Of a stretch of 28,287 nucleotides of DNA, positions 27 through 23,900 are shown piece after piece. Positions within the stretch are counted from its first letter, which is position 1; every line of letters begins with the position of its first letter. Both the position numbers and the translations under genes were made by a program. The notes below the pieces were generated by a model. The model did not search any database. It had not been told where the DNA came from and saw only the letters and a list, made by a program, of their open reading frames with translations. The stretch comes from Bryobacteraceae bacterium. Its GTDB lineage: Bacteria > Acidobacteriota > Terriglobia > Bryobacterales > Bryobacteraceae. The stretch is from the NCBI GenBank assembly GCA_030036985.1, contig JASHSD010000109.1:1-28287 (forward strand). Reading direction: 5' to 3'.

Positions 27-1028
27 ATGAACAAAGCCGATCAGGATTACGCGCAGCCGCTGGGTCTCGACGTCGGGACCAGCCGTATCGTAGCGGCGCG
101 CTTCATCGACAAAAAATATCAGTACGAATCGCAGCTCAACGCATTTATCACATTGCCGTATTCGGCTCTGGCGGAAAGTATGTTGCGGCGCGACAACGTT
201 TTCCACGAGGTCCGGCACGGGGAAATCGTGGTGGCCGGCGACGATGCCGCGAAATTCGCCGAGGTCTTCCATGTCGAGACGCGGCGGCCGATGGCGAACG
301 GCGTACTGAATCCGCGCGAGCCGCACAGTCTGCCGGTAGTGCGGAGCATCGTCGCCAAACTGATCGGAACGGGCGCAAGCGCGAAGCAGAAGGTTTTCTT
401 CAGCGTGCCGGCGCCGGTGGAAGGCAGCGACAACTCGATCGCTTACCATCAGGCCGCCGTCGGACAAATTCTGACGGATCTGGGTTACGTCGCCACGCCC
501 ATTACCGAAGGATTGGCCGTGGTCTTCGGCGAACTTGCCGAGACCAATTTCAGCGGCATCGGCATCTCCTGCGGTAGTGGTTTGTGCAACGTCTGCCTGG
601 CGGTGCTTTCTGTTCCCGTGATCTCCTTCAGTGTGTCCAAGGCCGGCGATTTCATCGACAACCAGGCCGCGCTCGTGACGGGCGATCTGGCCATCCGCAT
701 GCGGCTCGAGAAGGAAAAATCGTTCCACCTGAACGGGTTTACCGGCGACAGGGTGCACGATGCGCTGAATGTTTACTACCAGGAAGTGCTGGTGAACCTT
801 GTGCAGACGCTGCGCAGGCAAATTTCATCGGCCGAACGCCGCCCCAGTTTCGACCAGGCGATTCCGCTGGTATTGAGCGGAGGAACAGCCGTACCGCAGG
901 GTTTCCTCGATCAATTCACGAAGGTCCTCCGGAGTCATGAATTGCCGGTCAGGTTGTCGGAGGTGCGCCTCTCTCCCGACCCGCTCAACTCCACGGCCCG
1001 CGGCGCACTGATGGCCGCGCTCTGCTAA
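27..1028 (+). CDS. Actin-fold (ASKHA; MreB/MamK/ParM-like) ATPase
   Basis: 333 aa ORF with phosphate-1 motif GLDVGTS, phosphate-2-like GISCGSG, adenosine motif VLSGGTA and C-terminal connect-2 STARGA. ATG directly follows an upstream TAA (24-26), suggesting it ends an operon entering from the left. Confidence 0.8.
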   Translation: MNKADQDYAQPLGLDVGTSRIVAARFIDKKYQYESQLNAFITLPYSALAESMLRRDNVFHEVRHGEIVVAGDDAAKFAEVFHVETRRPMANGVLNPREPHSLPVVRSIVAKLIGTGASAKQKVFFSVPAPVEGSDNSIAYHQAAVGQILTDLGYVATPITEGLAVVFGELAETNFSGIGISCGSGLCNVCLAVLSVPVISFSVSKAGDFIDNQAALVTGDLAIRMRLEKEKSFHLNGFTGDRVHDALNVYYQEVLVNLVQTLRRQISSAERRPSFDQAIPLVLSGGTAVPQGFLDQFTKVLRSHELPVRLSEVRLSPDPLNSTARGALMAALC

Positions 1029-1101: not shown

Positions 1102-1130
1102 TTACTGAGCCGCGCGCGTAAGCAAGCGGT
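1102..1130 (+). repeat. REP-like intergenic repeat unit
   Basis: TTACTGAGCCGCGCGCGTAAGCAAGCGGT, with a partial degenerate copy just upstream (TTACTGGGCCGCGAGCCGCGCGT, ~1074-1095). From memory it resembles the GAGCCGCG..AGCGG intergenic repeats of Acidobacteria/Planctomycetes; not verified. Confidence 0.35.
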
Positions 1131-5484: not shown

Positions 5485-5628
5485 GGTATTCCCGATGCGA
5501 AACCTGAAAATGATCGGGCGACCCGCGACCGGACTCACCCGCACTGACTGCGCCCCAGGCCAGCGTGCACGCGACTTCTCGCAACAGCGGCGAGAGCGCT
5601 GCAAGAGAGTGTGCGCTCCGAAGCGACT

Positions 5629-5656
5629 TGTGATAATCTTAACAATCCCGTTTGTT
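5629..5656 (+). promoter_or_regulatory. Possible extended -10 element and AACAA-N6-TTGTT inverted repeat upstream of the E2/JAB/E1 operon
   Basis: TGTGATAAT at 5629-5637 and AACAA-TCCCGT-TTGTT at 5641-5656, upstream of the GAGGTG RBS of the gene starting at 5674. Confidence 0.25.
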
Positions 5657-5673
5657 TTGAACGAGGTGTATCT

Positions 5674-6345
5674 ATGGCACTAATCATTCCATTGACGCAG
5701 TGCGCCTCTGGCTCTGAGCCCAACACGGACAATGAAGCCCTGAAGGAAAAGCGCCGCAAAATTAAGGAAGCGCTGCTGAACAACCAGCAGATCAAGGTGA
5801 CACCTCAGGGGAATTTGGCGACCAACCCCCAGGATACTGGAATCGTCGTGCCGGAAGGGAAGCTGGCTTCGTTTTACTGGTATGAAGCTGATCCTGACCT
5901 TTATCGCGCCGAGATGGAGGCGATGCGAAGGTACTTTCCCACGTTCCGGCTCGACAAGGAGTCCGACGGACGGTTGTCTTGGGTCGGTCCAGTGACGCCG
6001 GGACTGATAGGAAGGCATCCGAGAACCTATACACTCCAAGCTGTGTACGACCATTCGCATCCTTCGAATGATACCTACGGAGGTTCCGTGAAGGTATACT
6101 CGGTCGATCCCGACCTGGAGGAAGTGGCGGACGGCGAGAGAATACCGCATACGCTCCGGGACAGCGAAAACGAACTTTATATTTGCACGGCGCGAAAAGA
6201 GGATGTCAGGGCGGGAACAAGCGCTGGTAGTACGGTCACAACGGCCGCGGTTGCAATTAGCTGGGCAGTAAAGTGGCTATCCGTCTTCGAGCTTTGGTTG
6301 AATGACGAGGTTTCTGACGAAGAGTTTCAGGGGCATGCATTCTGA
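5674..6345 (+). CDS. Prokaryotic E2 (ubiquitin-conjugating fold)-like protein with ~65 aa N-terminal extension
   Basis: Start reassigned to ATG 5674 (GAGGTG RBS), 223 aa. E2-like succession: helix (LYRAEMEAMRRYFP), strands (LSWVG, YTLQAVY), HP turn, then IPH(159)...LYIC(171), matching HPN...GxICL with a putative catalytic Cys171 (6184-6186). JAB and E1 genes follow. Confidence 0.72.
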   Translation: MALIIPLTQCASGSEPNTDNEALKEKRRKIKEALLNNQQIKVTPQGNLATNPQDTGIVVPEGKLASFYWYEADPDLYRAEMEAMRRYFPTFRLDKESDGRLSWVGPVTPGLIGRHPRTYTLQAVYDHSHPSNDTYGGSVKVYSVDPDLEEVADGERIPHTLRDSENELYICTARKEDVRAGTSAGSTVTTAAVAISWAVKWLSVFELWLNDEVSDEEFQGHAF

Positions 6346-6351
6346 GGGACT

Positions 6352-7305
6352 ATGTTCTCAAGCCCCGCCATTTATCTCAGCGATCGATCCTACACGGACA
6401 TCCTGAATGAGACCTCCCAGCACCTCGACACGGAAACCGGTGGCGTGCTGATCGGGGAATGTCGGCAAAACAAGTGGTTCGTCGTCGAGTCGATTGATCC
6501 GGGGCCGAAAGCGGTTCTCCAGCACTCTTATTTTGAGTACGACCAAGCCTACGTCAATCACCTTTCCAACAAGGTGCGACGACGTTACGCGGCGCCCCTC
6601 AGGCTGCTGGGGCTTTGGCACCGGCATCCAGGTAGCTTCGATCGGTTCTCGGGGACGGACGACGGAACGCACCGCCGATACATTCAGCAATGCAACGGAG
6701 TCATCATCTCGGGATTGGTGAACATCGACCCGACGTTTCGCTTCACTTTTTATTTTGTTGACGGCGAGCCACCTCACCACCAGAGGACCGACTACGCTGT
6801 CGGTGACCAGCATTTCCCGCCCGATCTTCTGCGGACCCTCGATGAGCGGACGCTTATTGGCAGGGTGAACGGATCTTCTGATCTGCCACATAGACCAGTC
6901 CAGGAACTGCAGATCATCGACAAGCGCCCGGCATCTTCCGCACTGATGGAACACATTGTGAATCCGATCAGGGATTTGTTTGGCGTTCAAACTCAAACAA
7001 CCGCTGTCGATGCGAGGGAGATGCCCCAAGCAGTCGTTGATGGCGTTGCGAACGTGGCTCTGGAAATGCTCGACGAGGAGCTCGCGTATCTCGACTCGCA
7101 GCGGGATTTTGAATACGAACTAGAGATGTCCCCACGCGGCGTGCTACTAACGATGCAGAAGCTTTCTGGCTTTAGGGGCGCTGGACAAGGCGTGAGATTC
7201 TTATTTACGGTCGAGGATCAGCAGCGCATCGTCAGGTACGGAACCCACTCATATGCGTTTCGCAAGGGAATTGTCGAAGAAGTCATTGGGCAGATGTTTT
7301 ACTGA
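6352..7305 (+). CDS. JAB/MPN+ (JAMM) metalloprotease with C-terminal extension
   Basis: Complete JAMM motif: E28 (ETGGVLIG) and H90-x-H92-x7-S100-x2-D103 (LGLWHRHPGSFDRFSGTDD). About 170 extra C-terminal residues are unassigned. Confidence 0.9.
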   Translation: MFSSPAIYLSDRSYTDILNETSQHLDTETGGVLIGECRQNKWFVVESIDPGPKAVLQHSYFEYDQAYVNHLSNKVRRRYAAPLRLLGLWHRHPGSFDRFSGTDDGTHRRYIQQCNGVIISGLVNIDPTFRFTFYFVDGEPPHHQRTDYAVGDQHFPPDLLRTLDERTLIGRVNGSSDLPHRPVQELQIIDKRPASSALMEHIVNPIRDLFGVQTQTTAVDAREMPQAVVDGVANVALEMLDEELAYLDSQRDFEYELEMSPRGVLLTMQKLSGFRGAGQGVRFLFTVEDQQRIVRYGTHSYAFRKGIVEEVIGQMFY

Positions 7306-7320
7306 CGGTGAAGCACTCTT

Positions 7321-8469
7321 GTGGCCAAAGATCGTGGGTATAAGGTCCTCCTTCCTGTCGAAATCGTCAACGGCCGCGTAACCGGGCCGCTTTACGGCTA
7401 CCACCATCCTGAAACCGGGGTGTTCAACGTAACCTCGTGCGGGGAGCTGTCTCCTCTTGAAACAGGTCGCCCGTGCGCGAGGCTCGGCACGCTCTCTGAC
7501 GCTTCCTCTGTGGCCGCTGGGGAGGGCGAAGGCCTGATTGGCCGCTACATTGACAACAAACCCGTCTTCACCTGCAGCGGGCAAGATTGCGAACTTCATT
7601 ATTACGCTCTGGTCCAAGATGTATTCTCCCGTAACCATGGAATCCTGGAAACCAGCGCCCTGCTTCACGCCAGGGCAGTAATCTCCGGCTGCGGCTCAGT
7701 CGGCAGCCAGGTGGCTTTGGATCTCGCGAGGTCGGGCGTGGGAAACTTTTTCCTGATCGATAACGATCAGCTCGCCTACCACAATCTATGCCGGCATCAG
7801 TGCGGGATCAGCGACGTGGGGCGGCTGAAAGTGGATGCCGTCAGGGACCGCATCCTGGAAATCAATCGAAATGCAAAGGTGCGGGTGGCACCCACCATCA
7901 TCGAGCGCATCGCCAAGGACGTGTGGGAAGCATGGCTCGACCATGACACTGTGATCGTCGGTTGCGCTGACAACCGCGAGGCGGACGTCTACGCGAACCG
8001 TCTTTCGCAACTGTACATGGCGCCCTTCGTGTCGATCGGTTTGTGGGAACGGGCCTTCGCCGGGGAGCTGTTCTGGAGCATTCCGGGAGAGACGCCTTGC
8101 TATTACTGCGCGTTCGGCGCAAAGACCAACAACCTGTCTTTCAGGCCCTCCCAAAACCGGAGAGTCTATACGACGGAAGAGGACCTGGGCAAACTGACCT
8201 TCGAGCCCGGCATAGCCGTTGATATCGGGTTCGTGACGAATATCGGCATCAAGATCGCGCTCGACCTGCTCGGCAGGGGCAGGCGTCCGATGCGTCTTCT
8301 TGACGACATCAAGCAATTCACGCTGGTCTGCAATACGACCAACGTCCAGGTCGCCGGAGACCTGCAGGAGATTTTCGACCATGCGCTGCAGGTGACGAGA
8401 TCCATCGACGTGGAAAAACATGAAGAGTGCCCGCACTGCCGCGTGGCCGGAAAAGGGCGTGAAGCATGA
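7321..8469 (+). CDS. E1-like ThiF/MoeB-family adenylyltransferase
   Basis: GTG start, 382 aa. GCGSVG nucleotide-binding loop, LIDND..HNLCRH, GRLKVDAV, GCADN, and Zn-binding C260xxC263 / C370xxC373. About 100 aa N-terminal extra domain. Confidence 0.92.
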   Translation: MAKDRGYKVLLPVEIVNGRVTGPLYGYHHPETGVFNVTSCGELSPLETGRPCARLGTLSDASSVAAGEGEGLIGRYIDNKPVFTCSGQDCELHYYALVQDVFSRNHGILETSALLHARAVISGCGSVGSQVALDLARSGVGNFFLIDNDQLAYHNLCRHQCGISDVGRLKVDAVRDRILEINRNAKVRVAPTIIERIAKDVWEAWLDHDTVIVGCADNREADVYANRLSQLYMAPFVSIGLWERAFAGELFWSIPGETPCYYCAFGAKTNNLSFRPSQNRRVYTTEEDLGKLTFEPGIAVDIGFVTNIGIKIALDLLGRGRRPMRLLDDIKQFTLVCNTTNVQVAGDLQEIFDHALQVTRSIDVEKHEECPHCRVAGKGREA

Positions 8470-11400
8470 GCAACGGGGGCAGCATGAACGCCGCGCATGA
8501 TCGGCGCGAGACGGAGTTGTGCGGCATCGCTCTTCTCGGGCAGCATTACTCGACTTTTTGCCAGAATCCCGCGAGGGTCAGGCGGGAAATTCTCTTCTTC
8601 ATCGACCATCGCTGGCGTCTGGCCGAGGATGAAAGGCAATGGTGCGCCGGCCTGCTGTCCGAAGATGACGGCGAGGCGCGCGATGGTGTCGGCCTTGTTC
8701 GGCAAATGGGCAGTGTTCTCGCGCCGGAGGACCTTACCGGACTGGCCCAGTGCCTGGGCTGGTTTGACGCAGGCGATGGAGCCATGCAGTCTTTGCTGCG
8801 CGATCTACTCGCCGGAGCACAGTCTCCGGTCGCGCACGGGGAACTTTTTCCTGAGCCGGTGTTGACGGCTTTTGGAGTGCTGGGCACCGATCCGACGCTG
8901 GACGCGGACGCGGTGAACCAGATCTATAAGCAGAAGATGAAGGTCCTGCATCCGGATGCCCGTGTCGGCGTCGAACTCAACGCGCGCGAGAGCGCTGAGG
9001 CGGATTCAGTCGTGAGACGGCTGACTGACGCGCGAGAGACGATCAGAGCGCATTTCGAGACAATGAGCCGCGCGTCATCCGGCCCGACCGGCCGGCCGCC
9101 GCCGGCGGAGCCAATGGAAGACGACAAGACGTGGAATCTCACGGCGCGCACGCGCGAACTCGGGCAAAGGGTCCAACAAACAATTGAAGCGGCCCACGAG
9201 ATCATTAGGGAAACCGATCAGCGAATAGAAAACGCCCGCAACAAGCGGCAGGCAGACATAGCGGCTATAAACAATCTGGCGGCGCCCCCCCGGCAGGAGG
9301 CCGAGCACCTTTTGAGCAATGCACGCGCGCATCTGACGGCACAGGGCGCCGAAGTGGCGGTGCTCCATCGACCGGATTATCGCGGGGCGGGGCCAGCCGG
9401 AACGGATCTGCGCGACGCGCGCGCGGCCATATCCAGCCTGAAATCGCTCGTTGAGGATCAAGTTCTCAAGGCTTCGAAGCCCAAGCAGGCGTGGCGTCCC
9501 AACAGTGACGGAGGCGGCTGCGCAATGGTGATCGTCGCGATTTTTGCGGGCGCGATCGGCGCCAATCTTGCCGGCAACTTCCTGGGTTTCCTCGCCGGTT
9601 TTGCCGCCGTCTGCGGCGGCGTCATGTGGTGGCTTCACCACGATCCTGTTTCACGGCTGCGGTCCGTGTCTTCGGACGTCGAAGGGCGCGGGTATCAGGC
9701 GCTCGCCATCATCGACCAGTACACAAGAGAAACCACCGCCCGGGCGGACGCGGAACTTCAATCGGCGGAGCAGCGATTTCGCAGTGAAATCGCCCAACTC
9801 GACCGGTCCTTGCAGGGCCAGGCGGCGGAGCTTCAGCGTGAGATTGCATCCCTTTGGGCGGATGCGCGGTTTTCATGCGCGGAGTGGAACGCGGCTGACT
9901 GGGACAAGTGGCGTCCCTCGTCGGCTCCGGCGTTCGCGGCCCGTTTTGCCACGCTGACCGCTGAAACCGCCGACCTCGGCCGTCGCCTGACAGCAAATTT
10001 GAGCTTCGTCGTTCCAGCCCTGGCGCCTTTCCCGGAAGGGCGCGCCCTTCTGCTCAAGGTCTCGGGGGCCGCGAAGGACGGCGCGGCGAAGGCCATCCAG
10101 TCCGCGCTGGCCCGCCTGCTGGCGACGATCCCGCCCGCGAAGCTGCGCTTCACATTCATCGACCCCATCGCGCTCGGAAGCAATGTCGCGGCCTTCATGC
10201 CCTTGGCCGACCACGAAGAGTCGCTCGTTACCAGCCGTGCCTGGAGCGAGCCGCATCACATCGAGCAGCGCCTCGGCGATTTGACCGAGCACATGGAAAC
10301 GGTCATCCAGAAGTATCTGCGCACCGAGTTCAAATCGATCCATGACTACAACGAGGCCGCCAAGGAAGTCGCGGAGCCGTACCGGTTCGTCGTCGTGTTC
10401 GATTTTCCGGTCAACTTCACCGACACGGCGGCCCGTCGCCTGATCAGCATCGCGCGGAATGGCGCGCGCTGCGGCGTTTATTGTCTGGTCGTATGCGACA
10501 GCGGCAAGCCGCTGCCGTACGGATTTTCCCTCGATGAATTGCGACGATCATCCAGCGTCATTGAGGCCCCCACCGGCAAGCCTGAGACCGAACTAAGCTG
10601 GGCGGACCCGGACTTCCAATCCTGGCGCCTACAGCTTGACGCGGGCGCGCCGCGTGCGATCTTGGCGCGTGTCATCGGCGCGGTCGGCGGGCTCGCGAAG
10701 GACGCCATGCGCGTAGAAGTGCCGTACAGCAAGCTGCTCTCGCTTGCACAACTGGGCAACGGGAACTGGTGGAAAGCGACGACTGCAAAATCGATTCGCG
10801 TGCCCCTCGGCCCGACGGGCGCGCGCAAGCTGCAATATCTCGTGCTGGGTGAGGGCATGGGCCATCATGCGCTGATTGTGGGCCGGCCCGGTTCGGGGAA
10901 AAGCAACCTGATGCATGTCATCATCACCACACTGGCGTTAACCTACCCGCCGGAGGAGATCAGGCTATACCTGATCGACTTCAAGAAAGGCGTCGAATTC
11001 AAGTGCTACGCCGACTTTAAGCTGCCGCACGCGGAGGCGATCGCCATCGAGAGCGAGCGCGAATTCGGGCTGAGCGTGGTCGAGCGTCTCGACGTTGAAC
11101 TGAAGCGGCGCGGCGACCTTTTCCGCGGCGCGGGATCGGCCAATATCACCGAGTACCGGGAGAAGACAGGGCAGCAGATTCCCCGCGTCCTGCTGCTGGT
11201 CGATGAGTTCCAGGAATTCTTCACGCAGGACGATCAGGTCGCGCGTCAGACCACGCTGATCCTCGACCGCCTGGTGCGGCAAGGACGCGCTTTCGGCATT
11301 CACGTCATACTGGGATCGCAGACGCTGGCGGGCAGCTACAATCTTTCCCGCAGCACGCTCGACCAGATGGCCGTGCGCATCGCCATGCAGTGCAGCGAGG

Positions 11401-12473
11401 CCGATTCACGGCTGATCTTGTCGGACGACAATCCGGCGGCACGGTTGTTGTCGCGGCCGGGCGAGGCGATCTACAACGCGGCGAGCGGCCTGGTCGAGGG
11501 AAACAACCTGTTTCAAGTGGCGCGGTTTTCCGAGGAGGACGGCGCCGAGTGCCTAGCGCTCGTCGGGCGGATCGCGCGCGATTCGGGCAGGAGGGTCGGC
11601 GTGCCCATTGTTTTTGAGGGCAACGAACTTGCGCATATGGTCGATTGCCGGAAGCTGCGGGATCTCCTCGGCGCGGCCGACTGGCCGGAGCGGCGGAGCG
11701 TCGAACTGCTGCTCGGCGATCCGATCGCGATCAAGGATCCCGTGGCCGTGCGCCTTCTACGGCAAAGCGGGAGCCATCTCCTCATCCTGTCACGCGACGA
11801 AGCGGAGGGCGTGGGCATGTGCGTTGCGTCCGTCGCCAGTATCCTGCTCCAGCAGCGGCCCGGGGATGCGCAGGTCTTCATTGCCGATTTCACGCTGGCG
11901 GACAGCGAATGGGCCGAGCGCGCCGAGGATATCGAGAAGCATTTCCCGCACCAGATCAAGGTGCTGAGCCGCCAGCGCGAAGTCGCCGACGCCGTCAAGA
12001 CCATCGCCGAGGAGGTCAGGCGCCGGGGCGACCCGCCTCCGGAGCGTTCCAGCATCTATCTCGTCATTCAGGGAATGCACCGCGTGCGGGTGTTGCGGGG
12101 CGACGACGAGTCGTTCGCTTACGAGGATGACCGCTCGACCCCGGCCGAACATTTCGCGGCGATATTGCGCGACGGCCCCGAGGTCGGGATACATGTGATC
12201 GCCTGGTGCGATACGTACGCGAACGCTGGGCGCGTCGCCGACCGCCGGATGATTACGCAGTTCGGCCTGCGAGCGGGCGGCGCGATGAGCGCGGACGATT
12301 CGATGAATTTCTTCGATGACGCGGCAGCCTCACGCATCGACAAACCGCATCGCATCATCTTCTTCGAAGAGGAGCGACCGGGCCAATTGGAGAAGTTCCG
12401 CCCTTATTCAATGCCACCGCGCGATTGGCTGGAAGAGGTCGGGGGACGGCTCCGCGCGCGGACGGCTTCTTGA
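8466..12473 (+). CDS. EccC/EssC-like FtsK/SpoIIIE ATPase with N-terminal helical + DnaJ (HPD) domain and two TM helices
   Basis: 1335 aa, ATGA overlap with the E1 stop. J-domain YKQKMKVLHPD (HPD 8949-8957), coiled coils, TM hairpin (~9520-9635). One intact ATPase (Walker A GRPGSGKS 10881-10904; Walker B LLLVDEFQ; GRAFGIHVILGSQ) is flanked by two degenerate FtsK-like repeats. Confidence 0.9.
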   Translation: MSNGGSMNAAHDRRETELCGIALLGQHYSTFCQNPARVRREILFFIDHRWRLAEDERQWCAGLLSEDDGEARDGVGLVRQMGSVLAPEDLTGLAQCLGWFDAGDGAMQSLLRDLLAGAQSPVAHGELFPEPVLTAFGVLGTDPTLDADAVNQIYKQKMKVLHPDARVGVELNARESAEADSVVRRLTDARETIRAHFETMSRASSGPTGRPPPAEPMEDDKTWNLTARTRELGQRVQQTIEAAHEIIRETDQRIENARNKRQADIAAINNLAAPPRQEAEHLLSNARAHLTAQGAEVAVLHRPDYRGAGPAGTDLRDARAAISSLKSLVEDQVLKASKPKQAWRPNSDGGGCAMVIVAIFAGAIGANLAGNFLGFLAGFAAVCGGVMWWLHHDPVSRLRSVSSDVEGRGYQALAIIDQYTRETTARADAELQSAEQRFRSEIAQLDRSLQGQAAELQREIASLWADARFSCAEWNAADWDKWRPSSAPAFAARFATLTAETADLGRRLTANLSFVVPALAPFPEGRALLLKVSGAAKDGAAKAIQSALARLLATIPPAKLRFTFIDPIALGSNVAAFMPLADHEESLVTSRAWSEPHHIEQRLGDLTEHMETVIQKYLRTEFKSIHDYNEAAKEVAEPYRFVVVFDFPVNFTDTAARRLISIARNGARCGVYCLVVCDSGKPLPYGFSLDELRRSSSVIEAPTGKPETELSWADPDFQSWRLQLDAGAPRAILARVIGAVGGLAKDAMRVEVPYSKLLSLAQLGNGNWWKATTAKSIRVPLGPTGARKLQYLVLGEGMGHHALIVGRPGSGKSNLMHVIITTLALTYPPEEIRLYLIDFKKGVEFKCYADFKLPHAEAIAIESEREFGLSVVERLDVELKRRGDLFRGAGSANITEYREKTGQQIPRVLLLVDEFQEFFTQDDQVARQTTLILDRLVRQGRAFGIHVILGSQTLAGSYNLSRSTLDQMAVRIAMQCSEADSRLILSDDNPAARLLSRPGEAIYNAASGLVEGNNLFQVARFSEEDGAECLALVGRIARDSGRRVGVPIVFEGNELAHMVDCRKLRDLLGAADWPERRSVELLLGDPIAIKDPVAVRLLRQSGSHLLILSRDEAEGVGMCVASVASILLQQRPGDAQVFIADFTLADSEWAERAEDIEKHFPHQIKVLSRQREVADAVKTIAEEVRRRGDPPPERSSIYLVIQGMHRVRVLRGDDESFAYEDDRSTPAEHFAAILRDGPEVGIHVIAWCDTYANAGRVADRRMITQFGLRAGGAMSADDSMNFFDDAAASRIDKPHRIIFFEEERPGQLEKFRPYSMPPRDWLEEVGGRLRARTAS

Positions 12474-12492
12474 GACGAAAGGTTGATTTCAT

Positions 12493-12777
12493 ATGCCTCA
12501 ATCCGATATTCATGTTGACCCTGACCGCCTGTTGGCCATCGCCGAGGAACTGAGCATGTTTTCGGGCGACATCAGGACCGAGTTAACCGTGCTTGACGGC
12601 GAGCTTGCCCGGCTGGGGCGCAGCTGGCAGGACGAGGAATACACGAAGTTCAAGCGTGCGATTCAGCCGCTGCGACGGGTTCTGGACGAATTCCAGCAGG
12701 AAATCGCGCGCAGCAAGCCGGACATGTTAGCCGACGCCGAGGCGATTCGTGTCTACCAAAGACTTAAGACCCCCTAA
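12493..12777 (+). CDS. WXG100/ESAT-6-like protein
   Basis: 94 aa helix-turn-helix pattern with central SW45QD..Y..F and an N-terminal VDPDRL motif; directly downstream of the FtsK ATPase. Confidence 0.8.
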   Translation: MPQSDIHVDPDRLLAIAEELSMFSGDIRTELTVLDGELARLGRSWQDEEYTKFKRAIQPLRRVLDEFQQEIARSKPDMLADAEAIRVYQRLKTP

Positions 12778-12782
12778 AAGCC

Positions 12783-13055
12783 ATGCCATCCGCCATCGTC
12801 ACACCAGCTGAACTCGTCGCCTTCGCGCGGCATCTTTCAAAGACCGCGGATAGCGTCGCCAAGCGCCGCAACAAGGCCGCCCGGCTCGTCGGCGATGCTC
12901 GAAGCGTCTGGAAGGACGCCAAGTACGACCGTTTCCGCAAGACGTTCGATCAGACCGTCAAGGACCTGGACCGGTTCGTCAGGCTTGCGGAGGACTACGC
13001 CCAGTTCCTGGAACGCAAGGCCGGACTGGCGCGCAAGTATCTTGACAACCGGTGA
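12783..13055 (+). CDS. WXG100/ESAT-6-like protein
   Basis: 90 aa; N-terminal VTPAELVAFA and central VW43KD..Y..F; tandem partner of the previous gene. Confidence 0.8.
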   Translation: MPSAIVTPAELVAFARHLSKTADSVAKRRNKAARLVGDARSVWKDAKYDRFRKTFDQTVKDLDRFVRLAEDYAQFLERKAGLARKYLDNR

Positions 13056-14035
13056 CGACGGTGCGAGACAGCGCCAAAGTCCGGAGCGAAGCCATCGCCG
13101 CGTTCGAGACGGCGCTTGGACGGTTTGCTGCCGCCGCTCTTGAACGCGCCAAGGCGGCGGAGACGACGCTGCGGCGGACGACGGGCCAGCTTGAGGAACG
13201 CCGGGCCGCTTTGCGCCGCGAAATGTCGCGTCTGCGCGACGAAATCGAGAACGCCGAAGAGGATGACGAGATAAGCCACGCGCGGCGGCAATACGAAGAC
13301 GCGGAGGAAGCGCTGTCAAACCTCGTCAGGTGGCAGCGGAATGTCGAGGCAACCGCCGCTTCCTATCAACGTGAAGCGGCCAAGCTGCAGGATCTGGGCA
13401 CCGGCATGACCGCCGAGGCGCGCGCAGCTCTGCGACGGGTCCTTGAAAACCTGGGGGCTTACTTCGCCTTACAAAAAGACGGGGCCGTGATCGGCCGTAC
13501 CGGCGGGGCTCTCGCTGCGGACCGCGCGGGACCCGAAGCGGACGGCGATCCGCGCCGCATTCGCGCCGTGGCGTCCGTCCTCCTGTCCCTGCTGGCCTTA
13601 AGGCGGGAAGCCTGGGACAACGCGGCTTCGCCCAATGCCAGGCTGGAGGCTCTGCAGGAAGCCGAAAACCGCATCGCGGATGTGACGGGGCGCCCGGCGC
13701 TGCCGGTGTTGCCGGCGGCGCTTGAGGCGCAAGAATACGGCGTATGCGACGGCGAGACAATCTGGATAAACGATGAGCACCTCGGACCCGGAAGCAGTCG
13801 CGAGATGATCAGAACGATCGTCCACGAAGGGCGTCATGCGTATCAATATTACGTTTGCGCTAACGCGGCGGCGCATGGCGATGCTGCCGAAGTCGAGGCC
13901 TGGCGGACGAATCTCTGCCAGTATGTGGAGTGGAAAGAGAATCCTGCGCGGTACGCGAGCCAGCCGGTTGAGGCCGACGCTTTTGCCTGCGAGGACGCGG
14001 TGATGGAGGTTTACTTGAACGAGGGAGGTGACTAG
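13052..14035 (+). CDS. Helical-hairpin (WXG/LXG-like) N-terminus fused to a zincin metallopeptidase-like domain; candidate effector
   Basis: GTG start with GTGA overlap, 327 aa. About 140 aa of coiled coil, then IWIN...TIVH258EGRH262AYQY and a downstream QPVEADA (third ligand Glu). Confidence 0.75.
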   Translation: MTTVRDSAKVRSEAIAAFETALGRFAAAALERAKAAETTLRRTTGQLEERRAALRREMSRLRDEIENAEEDDEISHARRQYEDAEEALSNLVRWQRNVEATAASYQREAAKLQDLGTGMTAEARAALRRVLENLGAYFALQKDGAVIGRTGGALAADRAGPEADGDPRRIRAVASVLLSLLALRREAWDNAASPNARLEALQEAENRIADVTGRPALPVLPAALEAQEYGVCDGETIWINDEHLGPGSSREMIRTIVHEGRHAYQYYVCANAAAHGDAAEVEAWRTNLCQYVEWKENPARYASQPVEADAFACEDAVMEVYLNEGGD

Positions 14036-14388
14036 TGGAAACCGGGAATTCGACGGGCCGACGCCTTGATCCAGTCGTGATAGCGGCTCGGCTTGTTGAG
14101 GAGTTCGGCTATTCGCCCGCCAGCGCCGAAATCACAGCGCTTGACCTGACCAACTGTTCTTCAAAGGTATGGGATGAGTTCAGCCGCTGGTGGCAAACAG
14201 GCGCGCTTGGCCCGCCGGAGGTCGAGGGGTTCTCGGCGGCGCAGCTGGTCCGCGATCACTCCCTCCTTCCGCCGGCCGCCTTTCTGATGCTCGACTGGCT
14301 CTTGAGAGACCCATCCGCCGCCAAGGCAGCGCTCGCGCGCGGATATGACTCGGTGGGTCATGGGCCCGCCGGGAGGAGGGCGCGGTGA
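14035..14388 (+). CDS. Small helical hypothetical protein; candidate immunity/inhibitor of the upstream peptidase
   Basis: 117 aa, GTG start overlapping the upstream TAG by 1 nt, with a GGAGG RBS. The function is inferred from position only. Confidence 0.6.
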   Translation: METGNSTGRRLDPVVIAARLVEEFGYSPASAEITALDLTNCSSKVWDEFSRWWQTGALGPPEVEGFSAAQLVRDHSLLPPAAFLMLDWLLRDPSAAKAALARGYDSVGHGPAGRRAR

Positions 14389-14476
14389 GATCAGGACAGA
14401 AAAGTTATCCGGGGCGGCGCGGGAGGCCTTGGCGCATTTTTTGGACTGGCTGCGGCCAGCTACGCAGGGATGAGTC

Positions 14477-14689
14477 ATGAGCCGAATGCGGGACCTTCAT
14501 GCGGAGGCGCGGGCGGAGTGGTCGCGCCTGCAGGAATGCTGGGAGGAGGCCCGCAGTCAGTGGCAGGATGACGTTGCTGACGAGTTCGAGCGGCATCGCT
14601 GGCGGGCCTGGGAGGAGCGCGTGCCGGTCTTCCTCGACGCATTGGAAAAGCTGGAGGAAATCACCAGCCGCGCTCTCAGGGAAACATAG
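14477..14689 (+). CDS. Short WXG100-like helical protein
   Basis: 70 aa, all-helical, with QW29QD..A..F, the same W-x-D turn motif as the two upstream WXG100-like genes. Confidence 0.6.
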   Translation: MSRMRDLHAEARAEWSRLQECWEEARSQWQDDVADEFERHRWRAWEERVPVFLDALEKLEEITSRALRET

Positions 14690-14828
14690 GCACATCTTTT
14701 GAAGAGAGTCAGTTATTCTTCCAGCGCGCGTTATCGATTGACGGCGCGGGCAGTCAAGGCATGGCGTCCTCGGCGGAACCCAACGTATCCCGACAAGATC
14801 CCGCAGTGTCGCTACGCTTGCATCAGCT

Positions 14829-15329
14829 CTAACAATTGGAATCGTTAACACGCGGACGCGGGCGCAGCCGGTAACCGAACTTTCGCGAACTTTGTATCAT
14901 CCCGCGGGGCTGCTGCTCCCCGGGGATCTCGAGCTGGCGCCCGAGGCGATATACAATTTGCTGGAGCGCACGCTTGCTCACCGGGCGGCCGGTCCGTTTC
15001 CGTACGGCCTCAAGCAGGTTGTCTAGTGTAATCCAGCCCTGCGCCTTGAAGAGAATGTCGAGGACCTGTGCCAGACTCTTTGTCAGCGAAAGTGTTTGCC
15101 CCCCGACGGACACCAGAACGCGCCCCGGCACAGTAACTCGGCCGGTTCTGCCGACGCCTAGTTCGAGGCGTGGATGCAAAGCATCACGTACGGCCTCCAG
15201 ATCCGATTTCGCCCGCACCATCGCTCGATAACCCTGCCGATAGCATTCGAGAGCCTTTTCCACGCTCAAGGCTGCACGATCGACCAGAACGTTCAACTGC
15301 CCCTTTTCGCGGGTGCCGAGGGACGTCAC
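14829..15329 (-). CDS. OmpR/PhoB-type winged-helix DNA-binding protein lacking a receiver domain
   Basis: C-terminal LSLTKSLAQVLDILFKAQGWITLDNLLEAV..SKRALQQIVYRLGRQL..IQSSRKFGYRL matches Trans_reg_C. The N-terminus is a short helical segment. Divergent from the 15536 operon. Confidence 0.75.
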   Translation of the reverse strand: MTSLGTREKGQLNVLVDRAALSVEKALECYRQGYRAMVRAKSDLEAVRDALHPRLELGVGRTGRVTVPGRVLVSVGGQTLSLTKSLAQVLDILFKAQGWITLDNLLEAVRKRTGRPVSKRALQQIVYRLGRQLEIPGEQQPRGMIQSSRKFGYRLRPRPRVNDSNC

Positions 15330-15366
15330 GGATATAACTACGAAAGGAATCCCCCTTTTTTCTGCT

Positions 15367-15386
15367 AGGTCACTGGAAGATGACCT
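15367..15386. promoter_or_regulatory. Palindromic candidate operator AGGTCA-N8-TGACCT
   Basis: Perfect 6-8-6 inverted repeat in the divergent intergenic region 15330-15535. Confidence 0.35.
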
Positions 15387-15535
15387 CTGCGCGGCAGCTT
15401 ACGGTTTTTGCACACCGGCACTAAAGAAAAATTACGCGCAAAACCGAAAAACAATCCGGGGCCCGCGTACTAGCTCTCGAGCCGGGCTGCTTTTGCGGCG
15501 TTCGCCCGGCCCGAATCTTGACGAGGGGGGAATGC

Positions 15536-16348
15536 ATGTTTCGAGGAGTTGTCGTTCTTTCTCTGATCGCGGGTGGTCTTGCGGTCGTAGCATATGTCAA
15601 CAACTGGGCTCCGTTCGCCGGAGAGACCCGATCGGTCGCCGCCCATTCCGGGAGCGCGCCCGCGGAGAAGTTTTCCGCGGACGCTCGACCAACCTCTGGT
15701 TCCCCGGGCGATTGCCGTGCTTACAGCGTATTTATTGATCCCACCACATCGACCCGGGACAGAGTAAATTACAAGCCGGAAATGGACAAGTTCATGAATC
15801 GGCTCCATTCATGCGACAGCGTCAGGGTTGGGCGCGTTGCGGACCGCACTTCAGATGAGGCTTGGGTGCTGCCATGGCAGGAGCTGCCTGTAGCCGATCC
15901 GAACGCCGGAGTCGTCGATGACACCGAGTTCAAGGTCAAATACCGAAAGGCGAAAAGCGCGATTACTCGGGCGGTGGACCGCCTGCTCGCGGAAGAATCG
16001 CCGGCGCTCTCGACAGATGTTCTGGGGCTTCTGCTGCGACTCTCGCCTGACCCCGGGCGAATCAATGTGCTCACGGTGCTTTCGGATGGCCTGGATACCA
16101 AGACCATCGAGAACGCATGTATAACGAAGCAGTCGATTCAGGGTCTGTTGGATAAGGCTACCGCTCGCCTCCAGCCCCGCGGGGGGCTGCTCGCTGGCTT
16201 CAGGGAGGTTTTCTGGGTAATGCCGACGAATGCAGGCCGCCAGAACTGCAATGCGCTACAGGAACAGCGCCTTTTTTGGCCGCCCATTCTGGAAGCCGAA
16301 GCTGCGCCGGGCAAACCGGGCATCCACTTCGACACGAACGTATTCTAA
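15536..16348 (+). CDS. Exported/membrane-anchored VWA-like (MIDAS) protein
   Basis: Start reassigned to ATG 15536 (GAGGGGGG RBS), 270 aa. N-terminal hydrophobic anchor and MIDAS-like VFIDPTTS...STDVLG...LTVLSDG. Four Cys could form disulfides. Confidence 0.7.
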   Translation: MFRGVVVLSLIAGGLAVVAYVNNWAPFAGETRSVAAHSGSAPAEKFSADARPTSGSPGDCRAYSVFIDPTTSTRDRVNYKPEMDKFMNRLHSCDSVRVGRVADRTSDEAWVLPWQELPVADPNAGVVDDTEFKVKYRKAKSAITRAVDRLLAEESPALSTDVLGLLLRLSPDPGRINVLTVLSDGLDTKTIENACITKQSIQGLLDKATARLQPRGGLLAGFREVFWVMPTNAGRQNCNALQEQRLFWPPILEAEAAPGKPGIHFDTNVF

Positions 16349-20498: not shown

Positions 20499-20962
20499 CG
20501 CGGATCCTTTCGCAAAACTTGGAGTTTGCTGTGTCCGCGCCGCGCACTTATTCTCGTCGTCGGCGTCGCTCCCAAAGCCAGTGGGATGGCCGTACAGAGC
20601 CGAGTCGATAGGGATCTGAGGGAGAGCGCGGTGCCGGCCGGATAAAGTGACGGTTCGCCCACGAACCAGGCACAGACTGCGCCAGCCAGCGCAGCCGCCG
20701 CTAGCGGCAGGGCCAAATGTAGGGTGGCCCGGTTCGGGGACTGGTCGGCAACGCGCAATGCCAAGTAGATCGTGCTGCCGAGCACCTCTCCAGCACCAAG
20801 CGTCAGCAGCAGGTGAACCAATAACGCTTTCCCAGGGTGAAGAAGGGCATACCAGGGATGCGCCACGAATAGCGGAAAATGAATCAATCCCGCAGCCATC
20901 CAAATAACCCCTCCATTCGCTAGATAAATGGCGTATCGCGCGCCTTCGTTCGGTCTAAACAC
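20486..20962 (-). CDS. Small multi-pass membrane protein
   Basis: 158 aa, GTG start overlapping the CHAT gene stop by 8 nt; three hydrophobic segments. Confidence 0.5.
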   Translation of the reverse strand: MFRPNEGARYAIYLANGGVIWMAAGLIHFPLFVAHPWYALLHPGKALLVHLLLTLGAGEVLGSTIYLALRVADQSPNRATLHLALPLAAAALAGAVCAWFVGEPSLYPAGTALSLRSLSTRLCTAIPLALGATPTTRISARRGHSKLQVLRKDPRWRK

Positions 20963-23900
20963 GGTAATTACCTTCGATTAGCTCGATGTCGCGCAACACG
21001 CCCTTCGACAGGGTCAGACACTCCTGGCATTGCGCCGGGGCCTTCCCCCGAGTGGCGCACCCCGGGCAAACCAACTCACCTTGGGGGCCATTTCGGATTT
21101 GCTGCTGCGCCATATCGAGAGCGCGAAGTGCCTCGGACTTGGCGGCAGTCGTATCATTCAGGGCAGCGTACGCGGAACCCATATTGCGATGTGGCATGGA
21201 ATAGTCGCCGCGCGCGATCGCTGTTCTCCCGGCGTCGACCGCAGCGACGAGCAGCGCCTGCGCCTCATGGCGCGGTGTTGCGGCGTCGATCGCCAGCAGG
21301 TAACGCCGGGCACAGAGTGTATTCCAGACTGGCGGCGACGTCGCGTCCAATTCAAGAGCCTCTTCCATTCGGGCAATACTCTCGCGCAGTTTGCCTGTCT
21401 GGCGGAACACCTCGGCCTCGAGGTTCAGGACATGGTGTTTCTGATCAGCGGTAAGAAGCAGTTCCTTAGCCAGAGTGAGCTCTCTTTGCGCATGCTTCCA
21501 ATCCTTTTCTCCAATCAGTTTGCCGGCCCAGAAGATCCGGTGCGGGGCGAGCTCAAAACTTGGATCGGCGGCAATCTTCTCCCAATGTGCAATGCCTTCG
21601 CTCGTGTCGCTATCCTCAGGGCTTGGGACCGTAGACAGGTCCCGCTGCTCAAGGGCAAAGCCCTTCCGCAACCAGGCAAGGTTCTCGTGCGGGTCGTTTC
21701 CCAAAGAGCATAAATTGCACATCGCCTTCCAGTAGCCTGGATCGAGTGTCAGCGCGCGATGGAAGCATTCGCGGGCCTCGGCAACGCGGGCGAGATCCAT
21801 ATAAGTGCAGCCCAGGGTATAGTGCGCGCGAGGACTGTTCAGGTCCATCTCAAGCGCCTGGCAGTCGTATTCGAGGGAGCGATCCGCCTGTCCCAAGAGG
21901 GTGTGGGCCTCACCTAGGCAGGCGAGCACGTGCCGGTTGGGGCCCCAACGGACGAGCGCATCCTCCAACATCCGCAGCACGTCCTCGTACCGCTTCTGCT
22001 CAAAGGCCGTCTTTGCCTGTGCGAGAAGATCCAACTGTTCTTGGGGGGAACTCTGAGCGCTCGACAGCACCAGAGGTCGCCATGAGAATCCGGATTCGGG
22101 TGCCGGAACAAACCTTTCTTCCGCAGCCTCGGCTGCCGTCCAGGCCGCTCCCCAAACCACGAATCCGGCCCAGTGCAGTGGATGGTTCGGATTGTGCTCC
22201 ATGGCTTCTTTGAACAGAGCGTTTCCCGGGACGCCGAGGCGCCGCTCGTATCCGGCGATATCACCTATGCTCAACCGGCGCACATGCGAGATGGCAGAGC
22301 CGAGCGCTTGCGCCACGGGTTCGCGGTCGGAGAGGAGGCGTTCGTAGAACCGCTCCATCAGGATCATCGGGCACTCCTGGAGGACCTCCCAAAGGGTAGC
22401 TACAACTACCGAACAGCCCAGCGCGAGGAACGCGGCAGGAAGGCCCGCGAACTCCCCCGCCGGATCGTGAGGCGCAACTCCGCTGCTGCACCCGTTTACA
22501 ATCACCGCTGTCCCACCGCGGACTGCGCCGCTTTGGAGCAAGGTCCGAGCATCCGTCTCACCGCCCGCCGTGTCCAGGTGGGAATACCATGGGTGGCGGT
22601 GGTCGCTGAAGGCGTGGCCGCTATAGTGCAGCCACAAGGTTTTGCGCAGCCCGTGAAGCACTGCCTCTTGCGTGGCGGCGCTTCTCGGTAGCCGCGTCAC
22701 CGCGACGCCGTGTCTCTCCGCGAGCTGTTGGACCGCGTCCACCTCGCGGGAGCTGCCGGGCATCTCACCGTCTGGATTGTCGACGAGAAGCATCTCCGAC
22801 GGTCGACCGACGGCGCGCCGAGATGCCTCCAGGAGGACGCCGCTGCTGGGGGCAAGCGAAACTAGAATCCCTTCCGGCACGCCGACATGCAACGGCAGGC
22901 GGCTCAACAGCCCCTCGGGTATCAGAGCAACGCGGGAGATGCCCATCCTCACGAGGGTCTCGGCGATCGAGCCGGCGCGTGAGGGCGAGCCGAAAATGTC
23001 TTCGCGAACCGAGCGGACCAGACCAGGCAGCGCGTTGATCCAGGCCTTGCGAGCGTTTCCCGGAAACGGGAGCTTCTTTTCCAAGGCATTCGCGAACGCG
23101 TTGTAAGCGGCTTCGTATGTCTTGACCGCCTTCGGCGGTTGAGATGAAGAAAACGATGACAGTAGCCAATAAATCGGGCGCGCGGCGGTACGACAGATCA
23201 GCATCACCGCAAGACCTCCCTCACAAAGGCTGAATTGCAGCACGGCAGTGCGATCGTCGGGAAGGCGGGCGAGGACGGTTTCAAGGGAAGGAGCGCCGCG
23301 CTGGATCAAGTCCGCCAGCTCCGGGCGTTCTGCGATGGCTTTGCTCACCGCACGCCTCCAGCCCTCCTCGGCCTTGCCCATCACGGCCCAGCCGCCGTGG
23401 GCCACATCAGGCGTTCTCCCAGCGGCTTCGGATTGGAGAAAAGCTCGTTTCTGCTCAGCTTGCGCCGCCTCGAGCTCGCGGCGCGTCTCGGGAGTGAGGT
23501 CGCGCATGGCGTCGGACGAGACGAGGATGTCAAGCAGGCCTCGGGCCTTGAACCGCTCCGAGAATTGAAAGGCACGGGCAAACCAATTGACAGCGTGCGA
23601 AGGGTCGTCGGTAGCCAGCCGAAGGCAGGATTCGACGAGACGTGGGAACAAGCGATGATATCGCCTGCGAAGGAGCGCGCGATCGGCAGGGCGCGAGAAT
23701 GGGAGGTCCCGGCGCTCGATGAGACCGATGATGAATTCGTAGTCCCGTTGGGCTTCCTCCCAGCGACCAAGATCCCAATACGCGTCTGCGCGGAGCGCCA
23801 GCACTTCCATGCTCTCGTCATAGTCGCCGTGCATCGGAAGCCCCCGAACCGCTTCGTCGATGCCCTCCATTGCTTGGTGAATCAGGATGTCGCGTTCCCC

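Follow-up and report, generated by a model that had tools for sequence, protein, structure and literature searches.

The window analyzed in this study is the complete 28.3-kb contig JASHSD010000109.1 (28,287 nucleotides) of a metagenome-assembled genome (MAG; 6.6 Mb, 88% complete) from a Bryobacteraceae bacterium, and the gene considered here encodes a 1335-aa protein in which a J-module precedes a membrane-anchored ATPase with three FtsK/EccC-like domains. With moderate confidence, we propose that this gene fuses two units that are separate elsewhere, the J-protein of an E2-JAB-E1 tagging cassette and a motor related to those of type VII secretion systems (T7SS), and that its J-domain brings DnaK to this motor. 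The first unit (residues 1 to about 203) would be a small class-C J-protein made of a six-helix domain and a J-domain with an HPD motif, and the second one (residues about 207 to 1335) would be a membrane-anchored mobile T7SS-like ATPase, of a kind that travels with solo WXG100 genes. No description of a J-domain carried by a T7SS-type ATPase or encoded in an E1/E2/JAB operon was found in the open-access papers searched. An earlier note, made from the letters of this DNA alone, had proposed a shortened T7 motor coupling Hsp70-driven unfolding or disassembly to substrate handling; taken as a whole, this interpretation is partly supported by the present work.

The J-module (the first ~200 residues) is autonomous and belongs to the E2-JAB-E1 tagging cassette rather than being an invention of the motor, since it is found as free proteins, fused to an E1 and as a separate gene following E1. 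When a profile of the N-terminal module was used for a full HMMER scan, 1.84 billion representatives yielded free J-proteins of 189-209 aa that cover positions 7-197 of the profile (E-values of 6e-52 to 3e-13). The locus L098 (G766:C21, positions 9513-15925) shows the gene order E2-JAB-E1-J, followed by a 115-aa ORF (open reading frame) and by a gene encoding an 801-aa TPR-CHAT protease. Its J-protein is encoded by a separate 211-aa gene overlapping the end of E1, its E2 and E1 are 57% and 52% identical to those of the window, and no FtsK or WXG100 gene was found in this locus, which lies on another contig of the acidobacterial genome that holds the J-less motor L003. In P0054 (586 aa), the J-module is C-terminal to an E1; with an E1 part 59% identical to that of the window over 379 residues and a J part 29% identical, this protein appears to be a more distant relative of the cassette of the window. 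Three more free J-proteins and E1 orthologues have longest contigs of equal size (60,822, 16,404 and 3,311 bp), which suggests the same J-E1 linkage in three more cases, the pairing of P0048, P0049, P0050, P0054 and P0072 with E1 genes being based on matching contig sizes. With 558 proteins at E ≤ 1e-20, E1 belongs to a large family.

The homology with J-less motors starts at about residues 200-207 (207-1332 for L001 and 199-1332 for L002), i.e., precisely where the J-module ends. The gene order E2-JAB-E1-J_motor-WXG-WXG-327aa-117aa is common to the window, L022 and L081, the latter being one extra locus gained from a metagenome scan; the closest named relative is a Vicinamibacterales (Acidobacteriota) MAG. 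When the ATPase part was used for an IQ-TREE phylogeny, the three fused proteins grouped together (SH-aLRT of 99) in a clade whose sister is the J-less L001, and this whole group is nested in an eight-member subclade with WXG genes downstream. Because the fused clade is nested among J-less relatives, the fusion appears to be one derived event, restricted to a small clade that comprises the window, L022, L081 and closely related metagenomic proteins; this quick tree was midpoint-rooted, and the direction of change is therefore inferred.

Besides the proposed recruitment of DnaK to the motor, two other explanations are considered as serious, namely a J-protein devoted to tagging and a conflict system. 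According to the first one, the J-module would serve tagging alone, for example by delivering DnaK-bound non-native proteins to E2 in a CHIP- or E3-like manner, the fusion being neutral or a mere tether. We consider this possible but rather unlikely. It would account for the free-standing module that adjoins E1 in L098, where FtsK and WXG are absent, for the module fused to E1 itself in P0054, for the lack of any evident E3 in the cassette and for the restriction of the fusion to one small clade. However, the fused form with an intact HPD has been kept in at least seven proteins whose module identity goes down to 49%, and the unchanged gene order in the three fused loci argues for selection on the tether.

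The distribution of the module is sporadic. Generic J-domains aside, it was found in none of 400 Acidobacteriota, 300 Planctomycetota and 400 same-class genomes (five of the latter sharing the genus and 70 the family), and it was not found in nine of the ten genomes carrying J-less motors. The cassette was not found in the same-class genomes either, a search of 400 Acidobacteriota genomes for E2 gave no match, and no close relative of E1 was found on plasmids. This sporadic occurrence of the module and of the cassette fits a mobile island. It also counts in favor of the second serious explanation, which we regard as unlikely: the locus may be an anti-phage or conflict module whose tagging cassette, with the J-protein as a sensor or adaptor, would control interchangeable effectors, either the FtsK-like ATPase with WXG/zincin proteins or a TPR-CHAT protease. 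Several other observations go in the same direction: (i) the cassette of L098 precedes a TPR-CHAT protease; (ii) the E2, JAB and E1 proteins of the window match the PADLOC models of defence-associated E1-E2/E2/JAB; (iii) a gene encoding an xis-like helix-turn-helix protein is located upstream in the window; (iv) the related ubiquitin-like (Ubl) cassettes Bil and Bub act in phage defence (PMC11601596); and (v) Ubl-E2/JAB/E1 sets with caspase-like effectors have been described in conflict systems (PMC7159879). By contrast, the association of the motor family with WXG100 genes, one of which is found nearby in 57 of the 80 fetched family loci, exists without any tagging cassette, and the best matches of the motor are T7SS ATPases.

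Concerning the second unit, the region that links the J-domain to the membrane anchor gives weak coiled-coil-type Pfam matches. The transmembrane (TM) hairpin announced by the earlier note corresponds to a single 40-residue hydrophobic stretch with basic flanks, and the relatives P0008-P0010 have two separate TM segments at the anchor. We read this stretch as a two-helix membrane hairpin, and because of this reading both termini would be cytoplasmic together with the ATPase domains. The J-domain, whose cytoplasmic location the earlier note had suggested confirming, would thus be on the same side as the ATPase domains, conditional on residues 351-390 being a hairpin.

Motifs, profile-profile comparisons and structural models also bear out the presence of three FtsK-like repeats of which the middle one alone has active Walker A and B motifs. 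In hhalign comparisons, repeat 3 matches repeat 2 (97.7%, E-value of 1.4e-12), repeat 1 matches repeat 3 (94.6%, E-value of 6.8e-8) and repeat 1 matches repeat 2 with an E-value of 0.09, in register, which shows that the repeats flanking repeat 2 are true paralogous domains. An AlphaFold2 (AF2) model of residues 470-1335 (pLDDT 87.8) matches the crystal structure of EccC D1-D3 (Foldseek E-value of 1.4e-35), with which it aligns over 740 residues; repeat 2 superposes on the FtsK motor (Z of 31.5), and the D2-D3 pairs of both EccC and EssC can be superposed on repeats 2-3 (Z of 28, about 490-500 residues). When compared to EccC by hhalign, repeat 2 is closest to D1 (E-value of 1.3e-31) and repeat 3 matches D2 best (E-value of 3.8e-10), repeat 1 resembling no EccC domain well by sequence. 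The position of repeat 1 fits that of the EccC DUF, the distance from the hairpin to the active Walker A motif being ~415 aa compared to ~400 aa in EccC, but hhalign found no sequence similarity between repeat 1 and the DUF domain (E-value of 0.55) and, unlike this DUF reading, Foldseek/VIA align the three repeats collinearly with EccC D1-D3.

This motor has more than 500 relatives in species-representative genomes, mostly from Planctomycetota and, patchily, from Chloroflexota, Bacteroidota, Proteobacteria and Acidobacteriota. In all the 72 aligned members, Walker A and B motifs (GxxGSGKS and hhhhDEFQE) are present solely in repeat 2 and the nucleotide sites of repeats 1 and 3 are degenerate. 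The family had already been noted as a mobile T7SS-like ATPase by Zhang et al. 2012 (PMC3482391, Table 1 footnote 6). Since the 72 members and this previous report show the same feature, a single active repeat is a family trait, not a peculiarity of the fusion gene. The single active repeat pointed out in the earlier note is therefore present, but it is a hallmark of a widespread known family and nothing special to this protein.

The N-terminal ~500 residues of the members of this family are mostly helical and domain-less. However, when counted from the first in-frame start codon, some members display apparent N-terminal extensions: L004 carries an FHA and a lipoyl-like domain, L036 (857-3646) a Ser/Thr kinase and L011 (2674-4479) DUF5685. 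The N-terminus of these motors thus seems to collect regulatory domains. This hot spot, which parallels the FHA domains of EssC, lends some weight to another explanation, in which the J-domain would recruit DnaK to assemble, disassemble or activate the motor oligomer, by analogy with the remodelling of clathrin by auxilin and Hsc70. EccC activity is also reportedly controlled by multimerisation (Rosenberg et al. 2015, structures 4nh0 and 4n1a). Nevertheless, a remodelling role leaves unexplained the presence of the same J-protein with a motor-less E2-JAB-E1 cassette, and we consider it as improbable.

Genes dnaK-dnaJ were found beside the motor in only one of 81 family loci, L004 (3615-13687, from a Pyrinomonadaceae MAG), where hrcA-grpE-dnaK-dnaJ is located directly upstream of a J-less motor, on the same strand. 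These genes form a classical heat-shock operon separated from the motor by a gap of at least 369 bp, and a second, better-scoring Hsp70 is encoded elsewhere in this genome. A dedicated Hsp70 beside the motor was therefore set aside, this single arrangement being possibly due to chance.

The J-domain with an intact HPD motif put forward by the earlier note is divergent yet real. The Pfam DnaJ profile (PF00226) gives only 14.9 bits (E-value of 0.03) on the fusion protein, where residues 136-170 match profile positions 3-37 (helix I to HPD), and 19.9 bits (E-value of 0.005) in a six-frame scan of its own genome, in which four canonical J-proteins rank above. Despite these weak scores, the assignment is secure because profile searches, conservation and structure agree. 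DnaJ is the top Pfam family for each of the 14 members of the module (best E-value of 3.1e-4), whose alignment (seven close homologues plus distant relatives, 21-62% identity) was used to build profile A5. Against the PDB, a profile restricted to the seven homologues has J-domains as five of its six best matches, with HPD in register (CbpA, E-value of 0.018), and all the 49 matches of profile A5 at E ≤ 1 are J-domains with HPD in register: RabJ is the best one (2.2e-4), and the others include CbpA, auxilin, Sec63, DnaJ, HscB, Sis1 and Tim14. H162-P163-D164 does not vary across the 14 sequences, nor do the helix I residues A135 and F136 and the helix III residue A189, and helix II follows a pattern (A-[FY]-[RK]-x-x-[ML]-x-L-x-HPD) that aligns without gap with canonical J-domains. 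In the AF2 model of residues 1-215 (pLDDT 81.6, pTM 0.78), HPD is located in the loop that joins helices 147-161 and 173-200; the length of helix III is unusual, and the model lacks a helix IV. The best structural matches of residues 130-202 are J or J-like domains, i.e., Tim16 (Z of 7.6, root-mean-square deviation of 2.1, 61 aa), 1wjz (Z of 7.2), HscB (Z of 6.6), xRbj (Z of 6.4) and 2ys8 (Z of 6.3), and the local J-domain probabilities given by Foldseek for the module model are 0.85-0.96. A loss of Hsp70 engagement by this region, which would then be a structural helical domain of the Tim16 J-like type, is very improbable: Tim16 is indeed the top structural match, the Pfam score is sub-threshold and spans just helix I to HPD, and the model has a long helix III without helix IV, but J-like domains have lost HPD, whereas this motif is invariant in 14 diverged sequences and helix II follows the canonical pattern without gap.

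The N-terminal six-helix domain, formed in the model by residues 8-116, displays conserved residues (E41, W59, C60 and W99) and is a candidate docking surface for conjugation enzymes or clients. The likeness to TerB/DjlA that had been tentatively suggested for this region is not supported: TerB (PF05099) was found neither by hmmscan (E ≤ 1) nor in the genome scan (E ≤ 10), and the fold match with the TerB-like 2ou3_B is weak (Z of 7.1, root-mean-square deviation of 4.6, 131 aa) and within helical-bundle noise. A TerB/DjlA origin was therefore not retained. Residues 19-92 (window 8520-8741) also give weak profile matches (E-value of ~0.6) with the C-terminal helices of the proteasome deubiquitinase Rpn11/PSMD14; this likeness, although curious beside a JAB gene, is probably due to chance.

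The ATG of the fusion ORF overlaps the stop codon of the upstream E1 gene (ATGA), showing that both genes are translationally coupled, and its stop codon is followed, after a spacer of 19 nt that contains a GAAAGG box, by the first WXG100 gene. Given this overlap and this short spacer, the genes encoding E2, JAB, E1, the fusion protein, the two WXG100 proteins and the 327-aa and 117-aa proteins constitute a single tight operon Table 1. The N-terminal half of the 327-aa protein is helical, its HEGRH motif being close to the C-terminus, and proteins homologous to its N-terminal part are encoded after the WXG pair in L001, L002, L004 and L011. Outside the operon, a 333-aa ORF at the left contig end (27-1028) matches Pfam Volactin (actin-like; E-value of 2.2e-77). 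The window also encodes a 1396-aa TPR-CHAT-TPR protein (20955-25145, minus strand), ~6.5 kb past the end of the operon, which is 25% identical in parts to the TPR-CHAT protein of L098.

Table 1. Features of the fusion gene and of its operon (nucleotide positions in the window; residues of the fusion protein)
Feature	Residues	Position (nt)	Strand	Remarks
Whole fusion ORF	1-1335	8466-12473	+	J-module and membrane-anchored three-domain FtsK/EccC-like ATPase
N-terminal six-helix domain of the J-module	1-116	8466-8813	+	AF2 model, A5 alignment
J-domain	127-203	8844-9074	+	Helix I 130-139, helix II 147-161, long helix III 173-200
HPD motif	H162-P163-D164	8949-8957	+	Loop joining helices II and III
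Pro-rich linker, then helical region	204-350	9075-9515	+
Hydrophobic stretch	351-390	9516-9635	+	Gly/Ala-rich, 40 residues; hydropathy, basic flanks
Repeat 1	500-765	9963-10760	+	Degenerate FtsK-like P-loop domain without catalytic Glu
Repeat 1 pseudo-Walker A	528-540			LLLKVSGAAKDGA
Repeat 2	766-1040	10761-11585	+	Sole catalytic domain
Repeat 2 Walker A	G806-S813	10881-10904		GRPGSGKS
Repeat 2 Walker B	909-915	11190-11210		LLLVDEF, with D913-E914
Repeat 3	1041-1335	11586-12470	+	Degenerate FtsK-like domain
Repeat 3, in place of Walker A	1105-1115			LLILSRDEAEG
Upstream conjugation cassette		5611-8469	+	E2 5611-6345, JAB peptidase 6352-7305, E1/ThiF 7321-8469
Downstream T7-like cargo set		12493-14388	+	Two WXG100 genes, 327-aa gene and 117-aa gene
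First WXG100 gene		12493-12777	+
Second WXG100 gene		12783-13055	+
327-aa gene		13052-14035	+	Helical protein carrying a HEGRH motif
117-aa gene		14035-14388	+

The present analysis establishes the domain anatomy of the fusion protein, the family of its motor, the independence of the J-module beside E1, the fact that the fusion arose once and is derived, and the coupling of the operon. As for its working, the motor is expected to oligomerise in the inner membrane, where repeat 2 would provide the power to handle or export both WXG100 proteins as well as the WXG-headed 327-aa protein. At the cytoplasmic face of this motor, the J-domain would recruit DnaK-ATP and trigger its hydrolysis, so that DnaK would clamp a polypeptide there (the host genome carries two full-length Hsp70 genes), and the helical N-domain may dock the tagging enzymes or their clients. 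Tagging, chaperone and motor would thereby converge on the same proteins at a single site. The Hsp70-driven unfolding of cargo or of tagged proteins put forward previously may be part of this working.

Various points weigh against the recruitment of DnaK to the motor. First, the links of the J-domain with DnaK and of the N-domain with E1/E2 are inferred, and the 14.9-19.9 bits of the J-domain fall under the Pfam gathering threshold (27.8 bits). Second, the J fusion does track with E1/E2/JAB, as the earlier note had suggested checking, in the three loci with context (3/3); however, since the fusion arose once, these loci are not independent and this co-occurrence counts as one event. Third, the cassette of L098 is devoid of FtsK and WXG genes, so the primary job of the J-protein may be unrelated to export. 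Fourth, T7SS substrates are believed to be exported in a folded state, as helical dimers, with no obvious need for an unfoldase, and crossing the inner membrane alone does not amount to secretion in diderms, among them acidobacteria. Finally, Pfam revealed no other T7SS membrane component among the window ORFs scanned, where EccB/D/E/MycP, EsaA/EssA/EssB and YukD, found in canonical T7SSa/b, are all missing; hidden Markov models of YukD and EccB, the two components searched beyond the window, find nothing in the 88%-complete genome.

The occurrence of the free J-protein beside a CHAT protease suggests that the cassette and its J-protein form a unit, regulatory or sensing, to which different sets of effectors can be connected. 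A bolder, improbable extension is that the J-protein would be the targeting factor of a new tagging system: DnaK would capture non-native or foreign proteins for E2, in a manner resembling Hsp70/CHIP, the fused form would pass tagged or chaperone-bound proteins to the T7-like motor, to be exported or disposed of, and relatives of the cassette would fire a CHAT protease. Tagging by Bil and Bub has only recently been shown to work, and the question of how they pick their targets when there is no E3 still stands; the presence of a J-protein dedicated to a tagging cassette suggests that Hsp70 does the choosing. Furthermore, no experimental work on the widespread mobile T7SS-like ATPases with solo WXG100 was found in the open-access literature. 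The natural fusion ties one such motor to a chaperone recruiter and to a tagging cassette, and it physically links chaperone, tagging and export machinery. Because it places them in a compact eight-gene operon, both questions, target choice and the motor family, become testable.

Like the Bub/6E and Bil ubiquitination-like operons (Ye et al. 2024, PMC11601596) and the Ubl-E2, JAB and E1 sets with caspase-like effectors from conflict systems (Kaur et al. 2020, PMC7159879), the window has E2, JAB and E1 in one operon, and the cassette of L098 with its CHAT (caspase-like) protease is reminiscent of the latter. The type I Bub (6E.1) operon encodes a Ubl-E2 fusion, a JAB-E1 fusion and a DUF6527 serine protease (PMC11601596). 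By contrast, JAB and E1 are encoded in the window by separate genes and not by a BubCD fusion, and neither DUF6527/BubE nor a RING E3 was found among the window ORFs scanned. Moreover, the cassette of the window includes a dedicated J-protein, whereas PMC11601596 and PMC7159879 mention no J-protein, FtsK or WXG100.

The fusion protein shares with the family of Zhang et al. (PMC3482391; YueA-like with solo WXG) the three FtsK-type domains, of which the middle one is active, and the adjoining WXG100 genes. It differs by the addition of a complete N-terminal J-protein and by the translational coupling of its gene to an E2-JAB-E1 cassette, neither of which was found mentioned for this family in the open-access literature. 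Like EccC/EssC (YukB), it has an N-terminal accessory region, predicted to be cytoplasmic, before a putative two-helix hairpin, as are the FHA domains of EssC, then a stalk and tandem FtsK/SpoIIIE domains, and a WXG100 pair and a larger WXG-headed protein are encoded alongside. However, it has only ~943 residues after the hairpin compared to ~1225 for EccC (~280 fewer, i.e., about one domain, in agreement with the shortened T7 motor proposed earlier), one Walker A motif compared to three in nine EccC sequences, and, unlike the EccC/EssC systems compared, a diderm host.

Lastly, as in the membrane-tethered class-C J-proteins DjlA from E. coli, Sec63 and Tim14/Pam18, an HPD J-domain is placed at a membrane machine, where it is expected to raise the local amount of Hsp70, although the TerB domain of DjlA is undetectable in the fusion protein. 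Sec63 and Tim14 act in trans as import ratchets, whereas the J-domain of the fusion protein would lie in cis, in the ATP-containing cytoplasm, at a motor equipped with an ATPase of its own.

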